Below are positions 10,979-42,749 of a DNA stretch of 64,000 nucleotides, in pieces. Position numbers and translations under genes: made by a program. Source of the stretch: Nanobdellota archaeon (GTDB lineage Archaea; Nanobdellota; Nanobdellia; Pacearchaeales; GW2011-AR1); the NCBI GenBank assembly GCA_038045825.1, contig JBBSXJ010000004.1:95301-159300 (forward strand), read 5' to 3'. The notes below the pieces were generated by a model, which saw nothing but the letters and a program-made list of their open reading frames with translations, did not search any database and had not been told where the DNA came from. Each line of letters opens with the position of its first letter. Positions within the stretch are counted from its first letter, which is position 1.

Positions 10979-11830
10979 CTATCTTTTTACAAACATTTTT
11001 TCAATTGTATGATTATCATAAACCTTTGGCATCTTTCCTGTTTTAGCATATTGGTATAATGCTGCTTTTAAGATACCATTTACACTCGTAGAGACTACCA
11101 TTATCATTATTATTGCAATAACTAAAATAATTGCACTAGCAATTATGAAACTTATATTTTTACTCATTATTGCTAAAATCATTAAAACTATGAATGGCAA
11201 AGAAATAAGGAAGAATATGGCTCCTATGCTAAATTGTGCAGTAACATTTTCACCCCAGGTTTTTTTGAATAAATGGGTTGAGTGTTTAATACTTTGAATT
11301 GGCCCATATTTTTCAAATAATATTATTGGTATTGTAAAGAAGGTTATAAGATTCCATGCTGTGCCAAGCAGACCTGCACCTATTTGTGATCCAATAGCTA
11401 CTGTTTTAGAACGATTAGATCCTGATCTTTTTAATGCGGCTAAAATTGTTCCTACTAAGGCGCTTATGGCAGCCCATCCAAATAAAGAAAATATTCTTTT
11501 AGATGGACCTCTTAAACCATCTGCTAAAGTAGGATTTCTACCCGAGAATCTTATTGTTGCTGATGTAACAATTGCTGCTTGGAAGAAAACAGAGATAAAA
11601 TAAGCACATATTGTAATTATTGCTAGTAGAACAAGAGCCGAGAAATAACTTAGATTGCTACTGATTAGAGTTACTCCTAAGATTCCTAAAAAACTTAGAA
11701 CTGTTAAAATCCCTATAACTACAATGATGCTTATGGTTGCTAATATTGGATAGATTAATATTTCTTTATCATGTTTAATGACTTCAAAACTTTGTTTTGT
11801 TATTTTCCAGCCTGTTGCTATTTTACCCAT
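10979..11830 (-). CDS. polytopic membrane protein (hypothetical)
   Basis: several hydrophobic helices and glycine-zipper-like segments. Confidence 0.4.
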   Translation of the reverse strand: MGKIATGWKITKQSFEVIKHDKEILIYPILATISIIVVIGILTVLSFLGILGVTLISSNLSYFSALVLLAIITICAYFISVFFQAAIVTSATIRFSGRNPTLADGLRGPSKRIFSLFGWAAISALVGTILAALKRSGSNRSKTVAIGSQIGAGLLGTAWNLITFFTIPIILFEKYGPIQSIKHSTHLFKKTWGENVTAQFSIGAIFFLISLPFIVLMILAIMSKNISFIIASAIILVIAIIMIMVVSTSVNGILKAALYQYAKTGKMPKVYDNHTIEKMFVKR

Positions 11831-11893: not shown

Positions 11894-13189
11894 GTGCTCT
11901 TACACATGGCTGAACTTAACTTTAAAGCAGGAGATATTGTTAGATTAAGACTTGCTCGTGAGGAGATTGAAGGGATAGTCTTGGAAAGTTATGATAATGA
12001 TGTTGTTTTGATTAAACTTAAGTCAGGATATAATATTGGAATTCCTAAAGAAAATGTATTGGATTTACATGTTATTGAAGAGTTTAAAGAAGTTAAGAAG
12101 AATGAAAAGAATGTTATCTCTAAAGATAAGAATAAGCCCTCTATTGGACTTGTGATTACTGGTGGAACTATTGCTGCTAAACTTGACCCTCGCACTGGCG
12201 GAGTTTCTTGGTTGACTGACACAAATGAATTTGCTAAATTCTATCCTAAGGTTTTTGAGAAAGCTAATGTGAAAAAGATTAGTGTGCCCTTTATGGTTGC
12301 TTCTGAAAATATGACTAGCGAGCACTGGATTACTATTGCAGAACATGTTAGAGAGATGCTTAATGATCCTGAAATTAAAGGTGTTATTGTAACTCATGGG
12401 ACTGATACTTTGCATTATACATCTAGTGCTTTGAGTTTCTTTTTACGTGATTTGAAGAAACCTGTTGTTTTGACTTTTTCACAGCGAAGTATTGATAGAG
12501 CATCTTCTGATGCCGAACTTAATTTAGAATGTGCTGTTGAAATGGCTCTTTCAAATTGTGCAGAAGTAATGCTTGTAGGACACGCAACTGAAAATGATGA
12601 TTATTGTTTAGCTTTGCGTGGGACTAAAGTTAGGAAGATGCATTCTTCTAGAAGAGATGCTTTCAAGGCTATAAATTGTGAACCCATTGCTAAAGTCTCT
12701 CCAGGCAAGATTGAGTTTTTATCTAAGTATAATGCTAGATCTGATGGATTGACTAAGATAGATACAGATTTTTCTGATAAGGTTGGTTTGATTCATTATT
12801 ATCCTGGTCAAGATCCTAGCATTTTGGATTATTATTTAGTTCAAGGATATAAGGGTCTAGTGATTGCTGCTACTGGTTTTGGTCATGTAGCTACAGGAGA
12901 TTCTGAACATTCATGGATTCCTAATTTAAAGAGAATGATTAAGCAAGGAGTTGCTGTTTGTTTTGCTCCTCAGACTCTTTATGGCAGATTGAATTCTAAA
13001 GTTTATTCTCCTGGTCGTGAATTGGAGAATCTTGGAGTAATATATTTGGATGATATGCTACCTGAAACTGCTATGGTAAAACTAGGTTATGTATTAGCTA
13101 AGACTAAGAAGCATAAAGATTTGGGAATAATAAAGAATATGATGCTAACTAATATTGCCGGCGAGTTGAACTCTCTACTTACTGAATGA
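11894..13189 (+). CDS. gatD: Glu-tRNA(Gln) amidotransferase subunit D (asparaginase-like)
   Basis: asparaginase motifs ITGGTIAAK and THGTDT; archaeal GatD N-terminal domain. Confidence 0.85.
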   Translation: MLLHMAELNFKAGDIVRLRLAREEIEGIVLESYDNDVVLIKLKSGYNIGIPKENVLDLHVIEEFKEVKKNEKNVISKDKNKPSIGLVITGGTIAAKLDPRTGGVSWLTDTNEFAKFYPKVFEKANVKKISVPFMVASENMTSEHWITIAEHVREMLNDPEIKGVIVTHGTDTLHYTSSALSFFLRDLKKPVVLTFSQRSIDRASSDAELNLECAVEMALSNCAEVMLVGHATENDDYCLALRGTKVRKMHSSRRDAFKAINCEPIAKVSPGKIEFLSKYNARSDGLTKIDTDFSDKVGLIHYYPGQDPSILDYYLVQGYKGLVIAATGFGHVATGDSEHSWIPNLKRMIKQGVAVCFAPQTLYGRLNSKVYSPGRELENLGVIYLDDMLPETAMVKLGYVLAKTKKHKDLGIIKNMMLTNIAGELNSLLTE

Positions 13190-13351
13190 TTTTATATGCT
13201 TTATAATTTTTTTAGTTACTTCTTTTCCCCACTCAACTTTATAATCTGTAAATATTATCTTTACTTTTTCATTAATACCTTTTATTATTTCTAATATGTA
13301 TTTTCCATTTTCCCATTTTTTATTAAGAATAATAAAAGAATTATCTGCCAT
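13175..13351 (-). CDS. possible small ORF / decayed gene (58 aa; upstream frame-shifted 26-aa piece)
   Basis: ATG at 13351, stop overlapping gatD 3' end by 15 nt; a second out-of-frame piece (MNPIKILNIYSKNLAGKIKESKNKID) lies upstream on the same strand. Confidence 0.2.
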   Translation of the reverse strand: MADNSFIILNKKWENGKYILEIIKGINEKVKIIFTDYKVEWGKEVTKKIIKHIKSFSK

Positions 13352-13690
13352 TTTATTTCTTACTAAATAATCTGCTTCTAAAATTCTTAATCTATTTTGT
13401 TTTTACTTTCCTTAATCTTTCCTGCAAGATTTTTACTATAGATATTAAGAATTTTGATAGGATTCATTTTTATTACCCCATCTATTTTTATCATTTAATT
13501 TAATATACTGTCTAATATATAAATATTATTAATGATGGGTTCTTGGCCACAAGAATTGGAAGACTTTAGTGCGTGAAAAGATGCTGGAGAATATTCGTGG
13601 AGAGTTTAATGATTTACTTACGGAGTAGTTGTAACTGTATAGAAGTTACAGATAGGAAGGTTTAAAAGGTATCATTTTTGTTTATTTTTT

Positions 13691-14794
13691 ATGAGTGTAC
13701 ATAGAAATAGAGAATTATATAATGCTTATCTTGACCGTTTAGATGGCTTAGCTAGTGGTAGAACTCCTGATGATCTGAAATCTATGACTAATAGAGTTTG
13801 GAATGTACTTATTGGTGATTATCCTGTTGATTTTGATGCATCTTTACTTAATGGACGTTCCGATTATGCTTCTAGAATAGCTACATTATTTACTACAGTA
13901 ACTCAACATCGTAAATCTCATAGAATACTAGAAGTTGGAGATGCTCATCGTGAAATGGCTACTGAACGTAGAGCCTACGATGCTTTAGATAAAAGTGTTG
14001 ACCTTCTTCAAGAATTTTTTATACCCAATGGACTTGTTGATACTCACCCTTTAAATGCTTTAGTTAAAGATGTATATCATCTTGCTATTGCATATGTTCA
14101 AACCGTTGTAAATATGGCTGTTGATGAGTACATTCCTTCTTCTAAAACTTTTGATGCTAAAATTAAATCCTCTCTTTTGGCAAGAAGAGCTTTTGAAGCT
14201 TATGCTTCTTATGATGGTACTCTTGAGAAGTTGGCAGGTGTGACAAATGTTAGACTTAATTTTGTTAGAAAATCTTTAGAAGATATAGGTAATGGCGATA
14301 AACTGAGAGATTTCGTACTTGTACAGGTTAAACCTAAAGATATTGCTCACAAGAAAAGGGCTATAACTCATTTACTTGAGACTATTCCTAGTGACTATTG
14401 CCCTGATTTTATAGTTCCTGTGGCTCAAGGAGGTATAGAATTAGGAGTTAGACTTGATTCTCATTATCATTCTTTAGGCCATAGACCTATTTCTTATCCA
14501 GTCATGTTTTCAGTTAAAACTCGTAGACAAATTAGACCTAGAATATTCCCTGATAAAGAATTTTTAGAACGATCATTTGATAAATCTCATCTTATTGCAG
14601 AAGATTGGATCACTACTGGAAAAACAATAGTAGGTTTGCTTGGGGAATTAACTGCTAGACAACCTAAAGATCTTAGAGTAGCTACTATAAAAAGAGATCC
14701 TGCAAATTTTGATAACAATATGTTGGGAAAGTATACAGTCTATTCTGGAGAAGTTATCAAATTTCAGAGTGGTGGAAGTCCAACAAGTAATTAA
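13691..14794 (+). CDS. hypothetical protein with C-terminal phosphoribosyltransferase (PRTase) domain
   Basis: PRPP-binding-type motif LIAEDWITTGKT in C-terminal third; N-terminal ~230 aa without match; amino-acid composition (Ala/Arg/Asp/Val-rich, few Lys/Ile/Asn) unlike neighbours. Confidence 0.5.
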   Translation: MSVHRNRELYNAYLDRLDGLASGRTPDDLKSMTNRVWNVLIGDYPVDFDASLLNGRSDYASRIATLFTTVTQHRKSHRILEVGDAHREMATERRAYDALDKSVDLLQEFFIPNGLVDTHPLNALVKDVYHLAIAYVQTVVNMAVDEYIPSSKTFDAKIKSSLLARRAFEAYASYDGTLEKLAGVTNVRLNFVRKSLEDIGNGDKLRDFVLVQVKPKDIAHKKRAITHLLETIPSDYCPDFIVPVAQGGIELGVRLDSHYHSLGHRPISYPVMFSVKTRRQIRPRIFPDKEFLERSFDKSHLIAEDWITTGKTIVGLLGELTARQPKDLRVATIKRDPANFDNNMLGKYTVYSGEVIKFQSGGSPTSN

Positions 14795-14845
14795 GATTGA
14801 TTTAAAATAGAAGATAATCTTTAATAATCCTGTTCTTGTTTTGGA

Positions 14846-16294
14846 TTGATGCATGATTATAAGAAACTAGGGTTTAAGGCAGGGCTTGAAATACATCAGC
14901 AGATAGATAGTCCTAAACTATTCTCTGGAGCTCCATCTTTTTTACGAAATGATGAACCTCATTATGTTATTGAAAGAAAGCTTCATGCTGTTGCTGGTGA
15001 GAGTGGTGGAGTTGATTCTGCTGTAAGTCATGAAGCTTCAATTGGAAAGACTTTTTTTTATGAAGGATATCGAGATACAATTTCGCTTGTTGAATTAGAT
15101 GAAGAACCTGCTCATGCAATTAATGAAGAGGCACTTAATACTGCTCTTACTGTTGCTTTGCTTCTTGATTGTGAAATATATCCTGTTACTCAGATTATGC
15201 GTAAAACTGTAATTGATGGATCTAATACTTCTGGATTTCAGCGAACTGTTTTACTAGCACATGATGGTAAGGTTGAAACTTCTTTTGGAGATTTAAGAAT
15301 TGCTAGTGTTTGTCTTGAAGAAGATTCTGCTCGTGTGATTTCTCGTGGGAGGGATAAGGTTGTTTATCGTTTAGATAGATTGGGAATTCCTCTTGTAGAG
15401 ATTGCAACTTATCCTGATTTACATAATCCTGAACAAGTTAAAGAATGCGCTTTGAAGCTTGGAGAAATATTGCGTGCTTGTAATGTTAAAAGGGGAATTG
15501 GAACTATACGTCAGGATGTTAATGTTTCAGTTAAAGGACATGATAGAGTAGAGATAAAAGGATTTCAGGATCCAAAAATGATGATTAAAACTATTGATAT
15601 TGAAATTGATAGGCAGCTTTTGAATGTTAAGAATAATAAAACTACTGGAGATGTTAGAAATGCTAAAGAAGATGGAACAAGCGAGTTTTTGAGACCAATG
15701 CCTGGCGCTGATAGGATGTATCCTGAAACTGATTTGGCTTTACTTAGGCTTGGAAGGCAGAGAATTGACCATTTGAAGAAACACTTGCCTAAGTTAAGGA
15801 CAGATATGCGCGCTGAACTTGAGAAGAAAGGAGTTTCTGAGGATTTAATTGAATTGGTTTTGGATGATTCTGAAATTTTGGATGAGTTTCATACTTTACT
15901 TGATATTTATCCAATGGATGCTAACTTAATTGCAAAAATGGTTACTTTATGGAGACAGGAATTTGCAACTAAGACAAAGAAAACTTTGATGCAAATCCGG
16001 TCTGTTTTAAATGAAAGTGTCTATGCTGAAGTATTAAGGGCACTTGCTGATGAGGATATTGTTTCTAGTGATGTTAAACCTGTTCTTGCAAAAGTGCTTG
16101 AAGGTTCTGATGTCAATGATGCTTTGAAAATTGAAAAAATTGATGATAATGAGATTGAGAAAGAAATTCGTTTATTAACCAAGGAAAAACCTGGAATGCG
16201 TGCTAATGCTTATATGGGAATGTTAATGGCTAAATTCAAAGGAAAATTAGATGCTAAGAAGGCTATGGAATTGATAAACGGAGTTATTGGTTAG
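14846..16294 (+). CDS. gatE: Glu-tRNA(Gln) amidotransferase subunit E
   Basis: GLEIHQQI motif, GatB/E catalytic core; archaea-specific partner of gatD; shorter (482 aa) than typical GatE. Confidence 0.75.
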   Translation: MMHDYKKLGFKAGLEIHQQIDSPKLFSGAPSFLRNDEPHYVIERKLHAVAGESGGVDSAVSHEASIGKTFFYEGYRDTISLVELDEEPAHAINEEALNTALTVALLLDCEIYPVTQIMRKTVIDGSNTSGFQRTVLLAHDGKVETSFGDLRIASVCLEEDSARVISRGRDKVVYRLDRLGIPLVEIATYPDLHNPEQVKECALKLGEILRACNVKRGIGTIRQDVNVSVKGHDRVEIKGFQDPKMMIKTIDIEIDRQLLNVKNNKTTGDVRNAKEDGTSEFLRPMPGADRMYPETDLALLRLGRQRIDHLKKHLPKLRTDMRAELEKKGVSEDLIELVLDDSEILDEFHTLLDIYPMDANLIAKMVTLWRQEFATKTKKTLMQIRSVLNESVYAEVLRALADEDIVSSDVKPVLAKVLEGSDVNDALKIEKIDDNEIEKEIRLLTKEKPGMRANAYMGMLMAKFKGKLDAKKAMELINGVIG

Positions 16295-16324: not shown

Positions 16325-17386
16325 ATGGGTTCGATAATACATTCTGTTGGAACTTCTGCAGGAGAAAGATCTCTAACAAATAATGATTTGGAGAGGATAT
16401 TGAGGGCCAGTGGTCAAGAGACAAATGATGAGTGGATAGTTCAGAGAACCGGTATTAGAAACCGTATGGTTTCTCCTAATCAAGATATAGGACAATTAGC
16501 AGTTAGTGCTAGTCAAGGTGCAATTGAAAATTTATATCTAAATATTCGCCCAATACAGCATATTATTGTATCTACTAATACTCCAAGAAATGCTTTCCCT
16601 AATATTGCAGGCTATGTTCAAGACAAATTATCCTTCTCTCATCCATCGTTAATTGAAGATGGAGCATCGGGAGTTGATATTGGGGCAGGTTGCGGTGGTA
16701 TAAATTTTGCTCTTATGCATGCTGATAAGTTGATAGAAGGGCGACAGTTCAATACTGTTTTGGTTATAGGTGTTGAAAAACTTTCAAATGTTACTAATTA
16801 TGCAGATAGATCGACAGCCATATTATTTGGAGATGGAGCTTCCGCTTATATTTTAGGTGCTGGAGCTAATGAGGTGGGTTTTGTTGGTCATCACTCTAAG
16901 GGAAGTGGAAAAGACAGAAATTTGATTAAATGTTTGGATAAGCCTAAAGTTGATTTAGAAAGTGCTTTAGATATACTAGATAATGGGGCTAAGCCTAGAA
17001 TGGTGGTAGGTTCAGTTTTAGAAATGGATGGAAAAAGAGTTTTTACATATGTAATAAATCAATGGGAAGAACTTATATCTAAACTCAAAGATTTGAAGTT
17101 CAATCCACAAGGGATTTCTTATGATGAAATTTTTCATATTGCTCCTCATTTAGCTAACTTAAGGTGTTTAGAAAATGTTGATGAACGTTATCCTGGATTT
17201 TTACAAAAATGTAGACTAGTTACAGATACAGATTTGGCTAACTTTCATAATACTTCAACTGCTTCTCAGGGAAGAAGAGTTAAACAATTTGTAGAGGAGG
17301 CTGAGCCTGGAAGTTATTTGCTTAGTTTCGGTTATGGTGCAGGTTTACAATCTTGTGCAAATCTATATAGAAAACCATTTGCATAA
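16325..17386 (+). CDS. fabH: FabH-like 3-oxoacyl-ACP synthase III (thiolase-fold condensing enzyme)
   Basis: NDEWIVQRTGIRNR, catalytic Cys in GAGCGG, ILFGDGASA, His in APHLANLR, Asn in HNTSTAS. Confidence 0.65.
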   Translation: MGSIIHSVGTSAGERSLTNNDLERILRASGQETNDEWIVQRTGIRNRMVSPNQDIGQLAVSASQGAIENLYLNIRPIQHIIVSTNTPRNAFPNIAGYVQDKLSFSHPSLIEDGASGVDIGAGCGGINFALMHADKLIEGRQFNTVLVIGVEKLSNVTNYADRSTAILFGDGASAYILGAGANEVGFVGHHSKGSGKDRNLIKCLDKPKVDLESALDILDNGAKPRMVVGSVLEMDGKRVFTYVINQWEELISKLKDLKFNPQGISYDEIFHIAPHLANLRCLENVDERYPGFLQKCRLVTDTDLANFHNTSTASQGRRVKQFVEEAEPGSYLLSFGYGAGLQSCANLYRKPFA

Positions 17387-17408: not shown

Positions 17409-18728
17409 ATGTTTGATATGGATTATTGGAAGAAACTTGTTGAAAGGAAAATGATTTCTGATGTTGATGTTAAGACAACTAGCGCTGTTGTTGCAGGATG
17501 GGTTTATGATCAACGTGATCTTGGAAAAATTAGATTTCTTGTACTTAGGGACTTTTCTGGAGAGATGCAAATAATTGCTCATAAAGATAAAGCTTCTAAA
17601 GAAGTTTTTGATTTAATGCAGAAAGTTTCTCGTGAGAGTGTTGTATTAATTTCTGGTAAAGTTCAGAAGAGTGATAAAGCTCCAGGGGGGAGAGAACTTG
17701 TTGCAGAACATTTTGAAGTTTTAAGTGTCGCTGAGAGTCCTTTGCCTATCGATGTTTCTGACTTTTCCAAGACTGAATTACCTAAGAGACTTGATTATAG
17801 ATATGTTGATTTTCACAGAAGAAGAACTCAGGCTATTTTCAAGATACAAAGTACAATATCTATTGCTTTTAGGGATTTTTTCTCTAAAAATAGATATATT
17901 GAAATGCAACCTCCTTGCTTGATTGGAGTTGCTTCTGAAGGAGGAGCTGACGTTTTCAAAGTAAAATATTTTGAACGTGAAGCTTGTCTTGCTCAAAGTC
18001 CTCAATTGTATAAAGAAATGGTTGCTTGTTCGATGGAGAAGACTTTTATGATTACTCCTGTTTGGAGAGCTGAAAAACATAATACTATACGCCATATAAA
18101 TGAGATTCGTCAAATGGATATTGAATGTTCTTTTATGAATCAGATGGATGTAATGAAGATAGAAGAAGAATGTGTTAAACATGTTGTTTCTGAAATTATA
18201 AAGAAAAATAAATCTGAGATTGAATTGCTCGGATTGAAGTTAAAAGTTCCTAGTGCCAAATATGTTTCTTATGATGAGACTATATCTTTACTTAAGAAGA
18301 ATGGAATTAGTATTTCTTCTGGTGATGATTTAAATCCTGAAGCTGAAAAGAAACTTGGAGAGCTTTATCCTGATACTCTTGTTTTTGTACATTCATGGCC
18401 TTCATCTCTTAAGCCGTTTTATATAATGCCTAAAGATGGGAATGCTGATTCAGATTATTCTGAAGGATTTGATTGCGTTTATAGAGGATTGGAAATAACT
18501 TCTGGTGGGCAGAGAATTCACACTCCTGATTTATTACTAAAAAGAATAAAACATAAGGGAATGAAAACAGATGGTTTAATGGATTATGTTAATTCATTCA
18601 AGTATGGATCTCCTCCACACTCTGGCTGGTCAATTGGTCTAGAGAGATTTACAATGTTAATCTGTGAATTAGATAACGTTAGAGAGGCTACAATGTTCCC
18701 TCGCGATAGAGATAGATTGACGCCTTAA
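17409..18728 (+). CDS. aspS: aspartyl-tRNA synthetase, archaeal type (probably non-discriminating)
   Basis: N-terminal OB anticodon-binding domain, class IIb core, C-terminal FPRDRDRLTP. Confidence 0.85.
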   Translation: MFDMDYWKKLVERKMISDVDVKTTSAVVAGWVYDQRDLGKIRFLVLRDFSGEMQIIAHKDKASKEVFDLMQKVSRESVVLISGKVQKSDKAPGGRELVAEHFEVLSVAESPLPIDVSDFSKTELPKRLDYRYVDFHRRRTQAIFKIQSTISIAFRDFFSKNRYIEMQPPCLIGVASEGGADVFKVKYFEREACLAQSPQLYKEMVACSMEKTFMITPVWRAEKHNTIRHINEIRQMDIECSFMNQMDVMKIEEECVKHVVSEIIKKNKSEIELLGLKLKVPSAKYVSYDETISLLKKNGISISSGDDLNPEAEKKLGELYPDTLVFVHSWPSSLKPFYIMPKDGNADSDYSEGFDCVYRGLEITSGGQRIHTPDLLLKRIKHKGMKTDGLMDYVNSFKYGSPPHSGWSIGLERFTMLICELDNVREATMFPRDRDRLTP

Positions 18729-41610: not shown

Positions 41611-42705
41611 ATGTTAAAAATTCCAAAAAAATGGAGAGAGTTACCTTTAGAGGAGAGAACAAATAAAATAGTTGAATTATTTGGGATTTCTAAAAAGACT
41701 ATTAACAAAATTAGAAATATTAGAGATAAAAAAATTAAATTAATAGCTTCTGCAAAAATCCAATATCAAATGTTCGGTGAGATTCATAGTTACTTGACTT
41801 GTTGGATTGCTGGTTACGGTAGTGACGTAGAAGTAAGAAATGTTTTTGGATCTACACATGCTTTAAGGTCTATTTTTATAAAGTTTGCAAGAGTTAAGGG
41901 AATAGAATATTCTTGGCAAGACATTAAAAGAGGAGTAAAAATTCCTGAAAAAATTACTCCTTTATTAGCAGAGGAAACAGGAATACATTTAGGAGATGGG
42001 TGTCTTTATTTATATATAGATAATAATGGTTATAAGTCATATAGATATTCTATTACTGGAAATCTTATAGATGAAGAGCCATATCACACAAATTATATTG
42101 CAAAAATTTTGTTTCAGCTTTATAATTTAAAACCTAGATTTCTAATAAGACCTAATCAGAATAGCATAGATACTACTGTTGGTTCTAAGGCAATATTTCA
42201 GTTTAAATCTAAGATTCTTGGTTTACCTTCTGGCAGTAAAAAGTATGCTAGCATACCTCTAGCTATTTTACAAAATAATGAACTTAGTAAAAGATGTTTG
42301 GTCGGTATATTTGATACTGATTTTAATATTACAGAACATCTAGCTATTAGTGGTAAGATTCACAGTATTAATGTGACTAGACAAATTCATGAAATTCTTT
42401 TAAGAAATAATATTAAGCACATCTATAAAGAATATGAGGATTATGGTAGATTTTATATTAGCAAGAATTATGCAAAAATTATTGTTAAAGAATGGGAAAT
42501 GCATAACCTAAAACATTTGACAAAGTTTGAGGTCTTTGAAAAATTTGGGAAATTTATTCCATTTACAACTACACCAGAAAGAATTTCTTTATTAAACGGA
42601 AGTCTTTCTTTGGAGGAATTAGAGAAAATTAGCGAAAAAAGAAAAAATATCAACGACTCTGCGAGGACTCGAACCTCGGACCCCACGGTTTCTTTGAATC
42701 CTTAA
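41611..42705 (+). CDS. hypothetical protein with N-terminal HTH and degenerate LAGLIDADG-like motifs (possible free-standing homing-endonuclease-like protein)
   Basis: KIVELFGISKKTINKIRN (HTH-like); IAGYGSDVEV, GIHLGDGCLYLY, LVGIFDTDFN resemble LAGLIDADG blocks; 3' end reads through ~50 nt of the opposite-strand tRNA. Confidence 0.35.
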   Translation: MLKIPKKWRELPLEERTNKIVELFGISKKTINKIRNIRDKKIKLIASAKIQYQMFGEIHSYLTCWIAGYGSDVEVRNVFGSTHALRSIFIKFARVKGIEYSWQDIKRGVKIPEKITPLLAEETGIHLGDGCLYLYIDNNGYKSYRYSITGNLIDEEPYHTNYIAKILFQLYNLKPRFLIRPNQNSIDTTVGSKAIFQFKSKILGLPSGSKKYASIPLAILQNNELSKRCLVGIFDTDFNITEHLAISGKIHSINVTRQIHEILLRNNIKHIYKEYEDYGRFYISKNYAKIIVKEWEMHNLKHLTKFEVFEKFGKFIPFTTTPERISLLNGSLSLEELEKISEKRKNINDSARTRTSDPTVSLNP

Positions 42706-42749
42706 TGAATCCTAACAGCCGTGTGCTCTACCTGCTGAGCTACAGAGTC
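42654..42749 (-). tRNA. intron-containing tRNA, probably tRNA-Asn (anticodon GTT) with a 23-nt intron at canonical 37/38
   Basis: acceptor GACTCTG/CAGAGTC, D-arm GCTC-AGCAGGTA-GAGC, anticodon stem CACGG/CCGTG separated by 30 nt (CTGTTA|23 nt|A), T-arm CGAGG-TTCGAGT-CCTCG, discriminator G as in tRNA-Asn. Confidence 0.7.

Follow-up and report, generated by a model that had tools for sequence, protein, structure and literature searches.

A probable promoter-equipped cargo slot between gatD and gatE of DPANN archaea and its phosphoribosyltransferase-like occupant in a Nanobdellota archaeon

We analysed the interval between gatD (Glu-tRNA(Gln) amidotransferase subunit D) and gatE in a 64,000-nt stretch of DNA from a Nanobdellota archaeon (contig JBBSXJ010000004.1, positions 95,301 to 159,300, called the window below), together with the gene that this interval contains, which encodes a 367-aa phosphoribosyltransferase (PRTase)-like protein, here named PRTL. 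Core-gene hotspots and integron cassettes are described systems in which unrelated single genes are swapped at a fixed position between conserved genes. Integron cassettes are promoterless, with a 3' attC site, and the IntI integrase and attI lie beside the array. In AbiE, the nucleotidyltransferase toxin AbiEii goes with AbiEi, an operator-binding repressor, and autoregulated toxin-antitoxin promoters have an inverted repeat just upstream of the promoter.

We found that in Pacearchaeota and Woesearchaeota (DPANN archaea) the gatD-gatE interval is a lineage-wide slot for single-gene cargo, with two conserved edges, and that PRTL is one of its occupants. The slot resembles core-gene hotspots and integron cassettes in outcome, not in design. 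Unrelated single genes are likewise exchanged at a fixed position, each with a short inverted repeat, and one locus (L014) has two such modules in tandem. In contrast with integrons, the repeat lies 5' of the open reading frame (ORF), fused to a TATA element/promoter at a fixed spacing, the flanks are essential archaeal translation genes, and no integrase-like gene was found in any slot, the rest of the window not having been scanned for integrases. With AbiE the slot shares a few weakly AbiEii-like occupants and an inverted repeat placed immediately before the promoter, the arrangement of autoregulated toxin-antitoxin systems, but these matches are sub-threshold, no AbiEi-like gene lies in the slot, and one operator-like repeat serves unrelated cargo.

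PRTase domains are known from conflict systems. ShosT, the toxin of ShosTA, has a C-terminal PRTase domain that binds phosphoribosyl pyrophosphate (PRPP) and for which no base substrate has been identified, an N-terminal Rossmann-fold pyrophosphatase domain, and a DprA-like antitoxin partner, ShosA (PMC11961720). In type III retrons, e.g. Retron-Eco11, a PRTase-like domain is the conflict effector (PMC12746101). PRTL is like ShosT in having two domains, the C-terminal one a PRTase, and in being encoded by an accessory, sporadic gene. However, its N-terminal domain is modelled as an all-helical bundle with one hairpin, not as a Rossmann pyrophosphatase, and no DprA-like ShosA ORF lies between gatD and gatE. 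Unlike in retrons, no ORF of reverse transcriptase (RT) size is present in 13190-14845, Rfam returned nothing relevant, including non-coding RNA, for 13000-15000, the host is archaeal, and PADLOC gave no sequence match. With moderate confidence, we regard PRTL as a long-resident, dispensable occupant of this variable, promoter-equipped slot and as an active transferase of PRTase fold, probably conflict-related.

The slot, its edges and its cargo

We surveyed 65 metagenome loci returned by a GatE scan. All surveyed loci carried GatD and a short-form GatE, while PRTL was present in none of the 65 and was found solely in loci fetched through PRTL itself. Among the 45 loci in which gatD and gatE lie on one strand, the two genes abut once (27 bp, in L026); elsewhere the gap is 336-5409 bp, and these gaps hold at least 48 ORF clusters. 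The premise of the sequence-only reading, that gatD and gatE are normally adjacent, thus fails in this lineage. At the position of PRTL we found a 316-aa Fic gene in the relative with the GatE 88% identical to that of the window (L015), a 276-aa nucleotidyltransferase-like gene at 86% GatE identity (L057), and a GT4 glycosyltransferase gene at 83% (L017/L018). In a neighbour-joining tree of GatE, the PRTL carriers were scattered, and the window was nested among loci with Fic, nucleotidyltransferase-like, GT4 and unknown cargo. The same reading had proposed an inserted accessory module, and these relatives bear out that the interval holds accessory cargo. The splitting of an operon by a single or recent insertion of foreign DNA is not supported: PRTL adjoins gatD and/or gatE in 14 other loci. 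A literature search found nothing on GatDE in Woesearchaeota or on a gatD-gatE slot.

Compared with four close relatives, the window loses nucleotide homology about 40 nt past the stop codon of the native gatD and regains it at 14811-14815, 31-35 nt before the gatE ATG, so that the breaks coincide exactly with the slot edges. The features that define the slot are as follows; the coordinates earlier given to gatD and gatE hold.

11894..13189, plus strand: gatD (NCBIfam NF003217, 461 bits; Pfam GatD_N, Asparaginase and Asparaginase_C)
13629..13650, plus strand: inverted repeat TTGTAAC-N9-GTTACA, the left slot edge, upstream of the cargo gene in 36 aligned modules
13657..13669, plus strand: element AAGGTTTAAAAGG, resembling a B recognition element (BRE) and TATA box and conserved in 36 of 36 aligned modules
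13691..14794, plus strand: cargo gene PRTL, 367 aa (ORF list, AlphaFold2 model, hidden Markov model and Foldseek matches)
14815..14827, plus strand: gatE promoter-like element TAATCTTTAATAA, the right slot edge (resumption of homology; single copy in the window)
14846..16294, plus strand: gatE, short form (TIGR00134, 383 bits, in two stretches against a model of 622-630 positions)

The left edge in the window consists of TTGTAAC-N9-GTTACA, then AAAGGTTTAAAAG, then the cargo ATG at 13691. The consensus of the modules is TTGTAACT-N7-RGTTACA, followed by the BRE/TATA element AAAGGTTTAAA and the ATG. In the loci L001-L085 we counted 39 modules before 12 unrelated cargo families, one per locus except for the tandem pair in L014, and the distance from the start of the repeat to the ATG was 60-62 nt in nearly all of them. 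The window has a single copy of the repeat (0.08 copies expected by chance). In about 772 kb of fetched loci, its occurrences are virtually confined to positions upstream of slot cargo; one further match, near gatE, has no TATA element. By comparison with the archaeal BRE/TATA consensus, the conserved element would be a promoter. With the cargo ATG 24 nt downstream of the TATA, the transcript is implied to be leaderless. A scan of the region for bacterial-type promoters and terminators was uninformative.

The arms of the repeat are invariant and its spacer is free, no compensatory pairs were present in 36 sequences, and covariation was no better than in shuffles; we therefore read the repeat as a protein-binding DNA site rather than an RNA hairpin, and interpret it as a putative operator-like or recombination-site-like DNA element. 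An RNA hairpin or terminator was rejected on the same lack of compensatory pairs, on the empty Rfam result and because the repeat accompanies the cargo promoter also where further genes lie between it and gatD. At the right edge, the stop codons of the relatives' cargo genes abut or overlap the gatE promoter motif, and the empty site is 27 bp.

The 12 families include, besides PRTL, Fic proteins, weakly AbiEii-/MNT-like nucleotidyltransferases, a GT4 glycosyltransferase and unknowns. The assignment is solid for Fic (PF02661 at 2e-10; PADLOC SoFic at 5e-13 to 5e-19) and for the GT4 glycosyltransferase (Pfam glycosyltransferase domains). It is weak for three nucleotidyltransferase-like families, which share a GG..Q..R.T.D.D motif or match AbiEii models at E 0.001-0.005, and for two small proteins with sub-threshold MNT/Pol-beta matches. 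Four families have no assignment. Cargo right behind the module consists mostly of nucleotide-, phosphoribosyl- or sugar-transferring enzymes, while farther from gatE the slot may hold an epimerase, a minus-strand DUF1003 membrane protein or a small membrane protein. Transfer chemistry of these three kinds is typical of toxins and abortive-infection effectors. We favour a conflict-related role because of this resemblance, i.e. from weak matches and analogy.

Three further observations concern slot-mates. In L014 (7175-9126), the space between PRTL and gatE holds the second module, a 269-aa weakly AbiEii/DUF6036-like ORF, a metallophosphoesterase and a small MNT-like ORF, and looks like a small cassette array. 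In four loci of one Fic-bearing clade (L024, L025, L028, L030), an ORF of 96-101 aa overlaps the gatD stop (TAAtATG), runs for about 300 nt after it and precedes the module and Fic; it has no family match and could be a Fic partner or antitoxin. Cargo family 3 (L036, L039, L043, L044, L047, L082; 275-316 aa) has two invariant motifs, P..G..PFID and IDE.V.G.S, which on visual inspection recall a PRTase, but it was rejected as a PRTase (IDEVVSG motif), since hhalign against PRTL gave a probability of 0.1% and a profile search of the PDB found no PRTase.

Spread, composition and predicted structure of PRTL

PRTL is rare. We found 9 homologues among 5.8 billion proteins searched, 27 matches at E < 1e-30 in a profile search of 1.84 billion representatives, and 6 loci in 185,579 species genomes, the carriers being Woesearchaeota or Nanoarchaeota. 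In all sufficiently flanked loci but one, PRTL adjoins gatD and/or gatE (L001, L002/3, L004, L005, L006/7, L008-L014 and L084, with PRTL identities down to 29%). It mostly precedes gatE by 30-100 nt and is separated from gatD by 0-3 variable genes; it is directly upstream of gatE in 10 loci and beside gatD in 3 more, at GatE identities of 52-65%. In L004 and L006 it remains with gatD while gatE is elsewhere. A distant PRTL (P0027, 26% identical; L086) lies beside the gene for ribosomal protein uL1, not beside gatDE, and is preceded (150-310) by a degenerate repeat and TATA element, spaced 40 nt from the ATG as in the module. Here is a hint of a module able to move together with PRTL, or of one that originated as PRTL's own promoter.

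Pairwise identities of PRTL and of GatE correlate (r = 0.67, 55 pairs), and the values for the window are on the trend. In L084, a 52%-identical PRTL is flanked by a GatE N-terminus that is 81% identical to that of the window, so that other PRTL carriers exist within the window's own clade. The co-divergence and L084 argue against a recent transfer of PRTL from afar.

The composition of PRTL had been described as foreign, which did not hold up against the 41 ORFs of at least 150 aa in the window (PRTL included). Its GC content is 0.34 (window ORFs, 0.329 +/- 0.028), its amino-acid composition distance ranks 20 of 41 with Arg as the sole outlying residue (z 2.55), and its codon log-likelihood ranks 33 of 41, i.e. 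more typical than average. GC at third codon positions is low (0.13, against 0.21 for the window), which, if anything, points to a closer adaptation of the gene to the AT-rich bias.

An AlphaFold2 model computed from the family alignment had a mean predicted local distance difference test score (pLDDT) of 86.9 and a predicted template modelling (TM) score of 0.88, the latter suggesting that the two domains would pack as one unit. Residues 1 to about 205 form a helical-bundle N-domain (3-199 in the model) with a beta-hairpin at 78-91; modelled alone, this domain reached a pLDDT of 90.4. It had no significant fold match in the PDB (best E 0.34) and was seen in no other architecture in the profile search of 1.84 billion representatives. 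Residues from about 210 to 355 form a type I PRTase domain with a Rossmann-like five-stranded core in the model. The best sequence and fold matches of PRTL are archaeal purine PRTases of the same type I fold (Pyrococcus horikoshii PH0095, PDB 1vdm; S. solfataricus HGXPRT, 4z1o/4zfn). Foldseek returned 1vdm as the top match, followed by S. solfataricus HGXPRT, HGPRTs and PyrR, with probability 1.0 and TM(target) 0.5-0.65, and the family profile matched 1vdm at E 4.7e-7. PF00156 covered residues 222-337 of the window protein at 21.5 bits, against a gathering cut-off of 26.3; all 9 family members match this model, with a best E of 6.3e-11. TIGR01203 matched residues 293-351 only, at 22.4 bits against a cut-off of 150.

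Conservation was counted in an alignment of 25 family members, with identities down to 18%. The invariant residues are G247, E250, S274, K276, D288, D305, W306, T312 and K334, and most of them fall in three loops that align with the pyrophosphate (PPi) loop (GG), the mobile loop and the acidic-pair/TG.T PRPP loop of the archaeal purine PRTases:

14423..14440, plus strand: PPi loop A245-E250 (AQGGIE), with G247 and E250 invariant, aligned to ARGGL of 1vdm
14510..14524, plus strand: flexible loop S274-R278 (SVKTR), with S274 and K276 invariant and a low model pLDDT, as expected of a mobile catalytic loop
14591..14626, plus strand: PRPP-binding loop LIAEDWITTGKT, residues 301-312 (L301-T312), with D305, W306 and T312 invariant and E304 and G310 nearly so

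The PRPP loop had already been recognised in the ORF and is indeed intact. Judging from this alignment, the three PRPP-binding loops are under strong purifying selection. The invariant residues cluster as in an active site under selection, from which we infer a working enzyme: PRTL would be an active PRPP-dependent (or 5-phosphoribosyl-binding) transferase, the acceptor of which is probably not a standard 6-oxopurine. Differences from the archaeal purine PRTases lie in the additional N-domain, in an invariant Trp in the PRPP loop, in the lack of a conserved PPi-loop Arg and in the catalytic Asp (SDTGKT in 1vdm; D137 of human HGPRT), the position of which is occupied by Thr308 in PRTL and by Thr, Ser or Asn across the family. 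PRTL is also sporadic rather than universal. It is a PRTase-superfamily protein with a new architecture and an altered active site.

These same matches could be taken to mean that PRTL is a housekeeping salvage PRTase of the hypoxanthine/guanine/xanthine type, serving a DPANN cell that lacks de novo nucleotide synthesis, and that its position near aminoacyl-tRNA genes is merely inherited gene order. Its closest sequence and structure relatives (1vdm at E 4.7e-7, S. solfataricus HGXPRT) are indeed archaeal purine PRTases, its PRPP-binding loops are all intact and invariant, the gene is compositionally native and co-diverges with GatE, and K334 lies in the strand after the PRPP loop that also carries the 6-oxo-binding Lys of HGPRTs (K165 in the human enzyme). 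We nevertheless consider this explanation unlikely. The TIGR01203 score (22 bits against 150) and the replacement of the catalytic Asp by Thr308 led us to reject a standard 6-oxopurine enzyme, and an extra orphan N-domain of 205 residues and the tiny size of the family (27 matches among 1.84 billion representatives) also count against it. PRTL is, moreover, absent from 65 of 65 GatE-selected relatives, with unrelated genes in its place at 83-88% GatE identity. The gene does recur between gatD and gatE in distant relatives, which the sequence-only reading had linked to a housekeeping function, but it comes there with no housekeeping identity.

PyrR- and PurR-type regulators also deserve mention, since PyrR is among the best structural matches and PRTL is basic and Arg-rich. 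PRTL is not a dedicated binder of the repeat, because the repeat persists in loci without PRTL.

The gatD tail and the neighbouring genes

The 3' end of gatD in the window has been rebuilt by an insertion that lies upstream of the slot module.

13088..13535: 448-bp insertion into the gatD 3' end; homology to four close relatives stops at 13080-13097 and resumes at 13534-13538
13175..13351, minus strand: 58-aa ORF (ORF list, six-frame translation) inside the insertion, convergent with gatD, with a 15-nt overlap
13536..13628, plus strand: displaced native gatD 3'-end remnant (WVLGHKNWKTLVREKMLENIRGEFNDLLTE, then a stop), out of frame and non-coding; its translation matches the C-termini of relatives

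The insertion point is 30 codons before the native gatD stop. From there, a divergent, still recognisable replacement tail (13088-13189; YVLAKTKK...LLTE, then the stop) closes the gene and is followed by AT-rich DNA with a decayed minus-strand ORF. The window GatD accordingly ends in ...VKLG-YVLAKTKKHKDLGIIKNMMLTNIAGELNSLLTE, whereas GatD of all close relatives ends in ...VKLG-WVLGHKNWKGLVREKMLENISGEFNDLLTE. The remnant is about 80% identical in nucleotides to the gatD tails of L015, L057, L017 and L031, and the repeat follows it directly. None of the sampled lineages has a counterpart of the new tail (best score 75; the tail scores 163 against itself). We read the insertion, from these alignments, as the probable scar of a recombination with a divergent gatD-flanked donor. 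The scar in the gatD tail bears direct witness to DNA exchange in this neighbourhood by way of its conserved flanks. Being downstream of the native remnant, PRTL did not belong to the 448-bp insertion.

The 58-aa minus-strand ORF and its frame-shifted upstream pieces, reported before, were confirmed by six-frame translation, the out-of-frame pieces extending to about 13467. Pfam had no match for the ORF or for a frameshift-repaired version of 98 aa, and across 85 loci we found no relative of it, nor is it related to the small genes after gatD elsewhere; it is probably a gene remnant. A 34-nt, 71%-complementary match of this ORF to the module was judged to be chance in AT-rich DNA. The AT-rich spacer described earlier is real (GC 0.23 at 13200-13599), but the spacer is not featureless, since it includes the gatD-tail remnant at 13536-13628 and the repeat/promoter module at 13629-13669.

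A scar at this place, directly upstream of a gene that is missing from the nearest relatives, might suggest that a horizontally acquired defence module with a PRTase effector, of the kind known in ShosTA (PMC11961720) and type III retrons (PMC12746101), was recently dropped between gatD and gatE. We hold such a mobile insertion to be quite improbable. The scar (13088-13535) excludes PRTL, being upstream of the native remnant and of the conserved module, and no integrase, repeat pair or tRNA target was found around PRTL. GC and codon use are native, the identity of PRTL to other carriers is on the vertical trend, and L084 is a further carrier inside the same clade (PRTL 52%, GatE 81%). There is no ShosA-like or RT partner, no PADLOC match for the window protein and no viral copy. 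A viral origin was separately rejected, as no PHROGs phage family matches the window PRTL and the viral contigs of IMG/VR contain neither a relative of PRTL nor a copy of the repeat/promoter module.

As for gatD and gatE themselves, the true start of gatD is likely ATG 11906 (MAELNF...), as GatD of relatives begins MAELNF, and that of gatE is likely ATG 14849, which would give a protein of 481 aa. The window GatE is 100% identical to the 481-aa NCBI protein AABW71_02515. This short form (481-482 aa) lacks the AspRS-like insertion domain, and its 120 best homologues, named Pacearchaeota or Nanoarchaeota, are all of short form too (468-501 aa). In a few related metagenome loci (L075-L077), GatE matches span about 1.8 kb, which suggests the long form in neighbouring lineages.

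The surrounding row of genes is variable at other places as well. A minus-strand gene for a DUF6159 membrane protein (10979-11830) lies between ProRS and gatD in the window, and likewise in L031; in L015 and L017 ProRS leads directly into gatD, so that the ProRS/gatD boundary is a second variable junction. After gatE come, in the window and in many relatives, a KAS III-like gene (16325-17386) and AspRS (17409-18728). The row of L015 has an amino-acid permease and a HIT-family gene in between, which indicates several variable junctions across ProRS-gatD-gatE-AspRS. Elsewhere in the window, ARAGORN reported a 96-nt tRNA-like gene on the minus strand (42654-42749); its anticodon is an odd one of 4 bases, and the gene is probably that of an archaeal tRNA with an intron.

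Role of PRTL and meaning of the slot

That PRTL is instead a subunit or regulator of GatDE, for instance one compensating for the AspRS-like insertion missing from GatE or acting on tRNA(Gln), is hardly probable: its place directly upstream of gatE in 10 loci and by gatD in 3 more (GatE 52-65%), its Arg-richness (z 2.55) and the use of the PRTase fold for RNA binding in PyrR, itself among the structural matches, would suit such a factor, but nearly all of the lineage lacks PRTL although short-form GatE is found throughout it, Fic takes the place of PRTL in relatives with an 88% identical GatE, a promoter of its own precedes gatE past the cargo stop codon, and PRTL is apart from gatE in L004 and L006 and beside uL1 in L086. 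We infer that PRTL is not a GatDE component.

The reading that we favour, PRTL as an old, dispensable occupant of the slot, would work as follows. Different genomes have unrelated ORFs in one frame between the module and the gatE promoter. PRTL would be expressed from a regulated promoter as a strain-variable accessory enzyme, and would be an old occupant that was kept in the window lineage and replaced in sister lineages. Replacement would proceed through recombination anchored in the conserved flanks, and the 448-bp scar in the gatD tail would be the physical evidence of such recombination. Because of its slot-mates, the most likely role of PRTL is in conflict, as a toxin, defence protein or effector-like enzyme. 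The idea of a defence effector, put forward before from the PRTase motif, survives in so far as several alternative occupants resemble toxin or abortive-infection enzymes; the window PRTL itself matches neither a PADLOC model nor a PHROGs family.

Several points weigh against this reading. Known defence families were searched with PADLOC, in which the window PRTL has no match, to ShosT or otherwise; one relative matches ShosT at only E 0.004, over the PRPP loop, and PRTL as a member of a known defence family was rejected. No antitoxin, sensor or partner gene is evident beside PRTL. The AbiEii and MNT matches of the slot-mates are sub-threshold, and nothing obvious ties GT4, epimerase and DUF1003 membrane protein cargo to conflict. 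An often-lost, lineage-specific housekeeping gene could likewise show co-divergence with GatE and fidelity to one locus. Neither a recombinase nor a transcription factor was identified for the repeat. The estimate of the rarity of PRTL (0 of 65) rests on metagenome loci picked by GatE peptides, not on complete genomes.

A bolder version of the favoured reading, which we put forward only as a tentative possibility, is that of a plug-and-play slot in which an operator-promoter module, under a regulator encoded elsewhere, would drive any single effector. PRTL would then be a toxin or defence effector of a new archaeal kind that transfers phosphoribosyl groups, its built-in helical domain acting in sensing or regulation, and the slot an integron-like cassette system of new design (5' repeat and promoter, ORF-precise replacement) in episymbiotic archaea.

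DPANN genomes are tiny, and their variation and defence are little known. We found no prior description in the literature of a DPANN slot with a 5' repeat-promoter fusion, ORF-precise replacement and essential-gene flanks. The slot corrects an annotation trap: a gene between gatD and gatE is not to be read, from its position, as one of tRNA amidation, nor PRTL as one of purine salvage. If the favoured reading is true, the slot would be a compact and easily recognised marker of strain-variable functions in DPANN archaea, and a route to new effector families, PRTL and at least 4 of its slot-mates having no assigned family.

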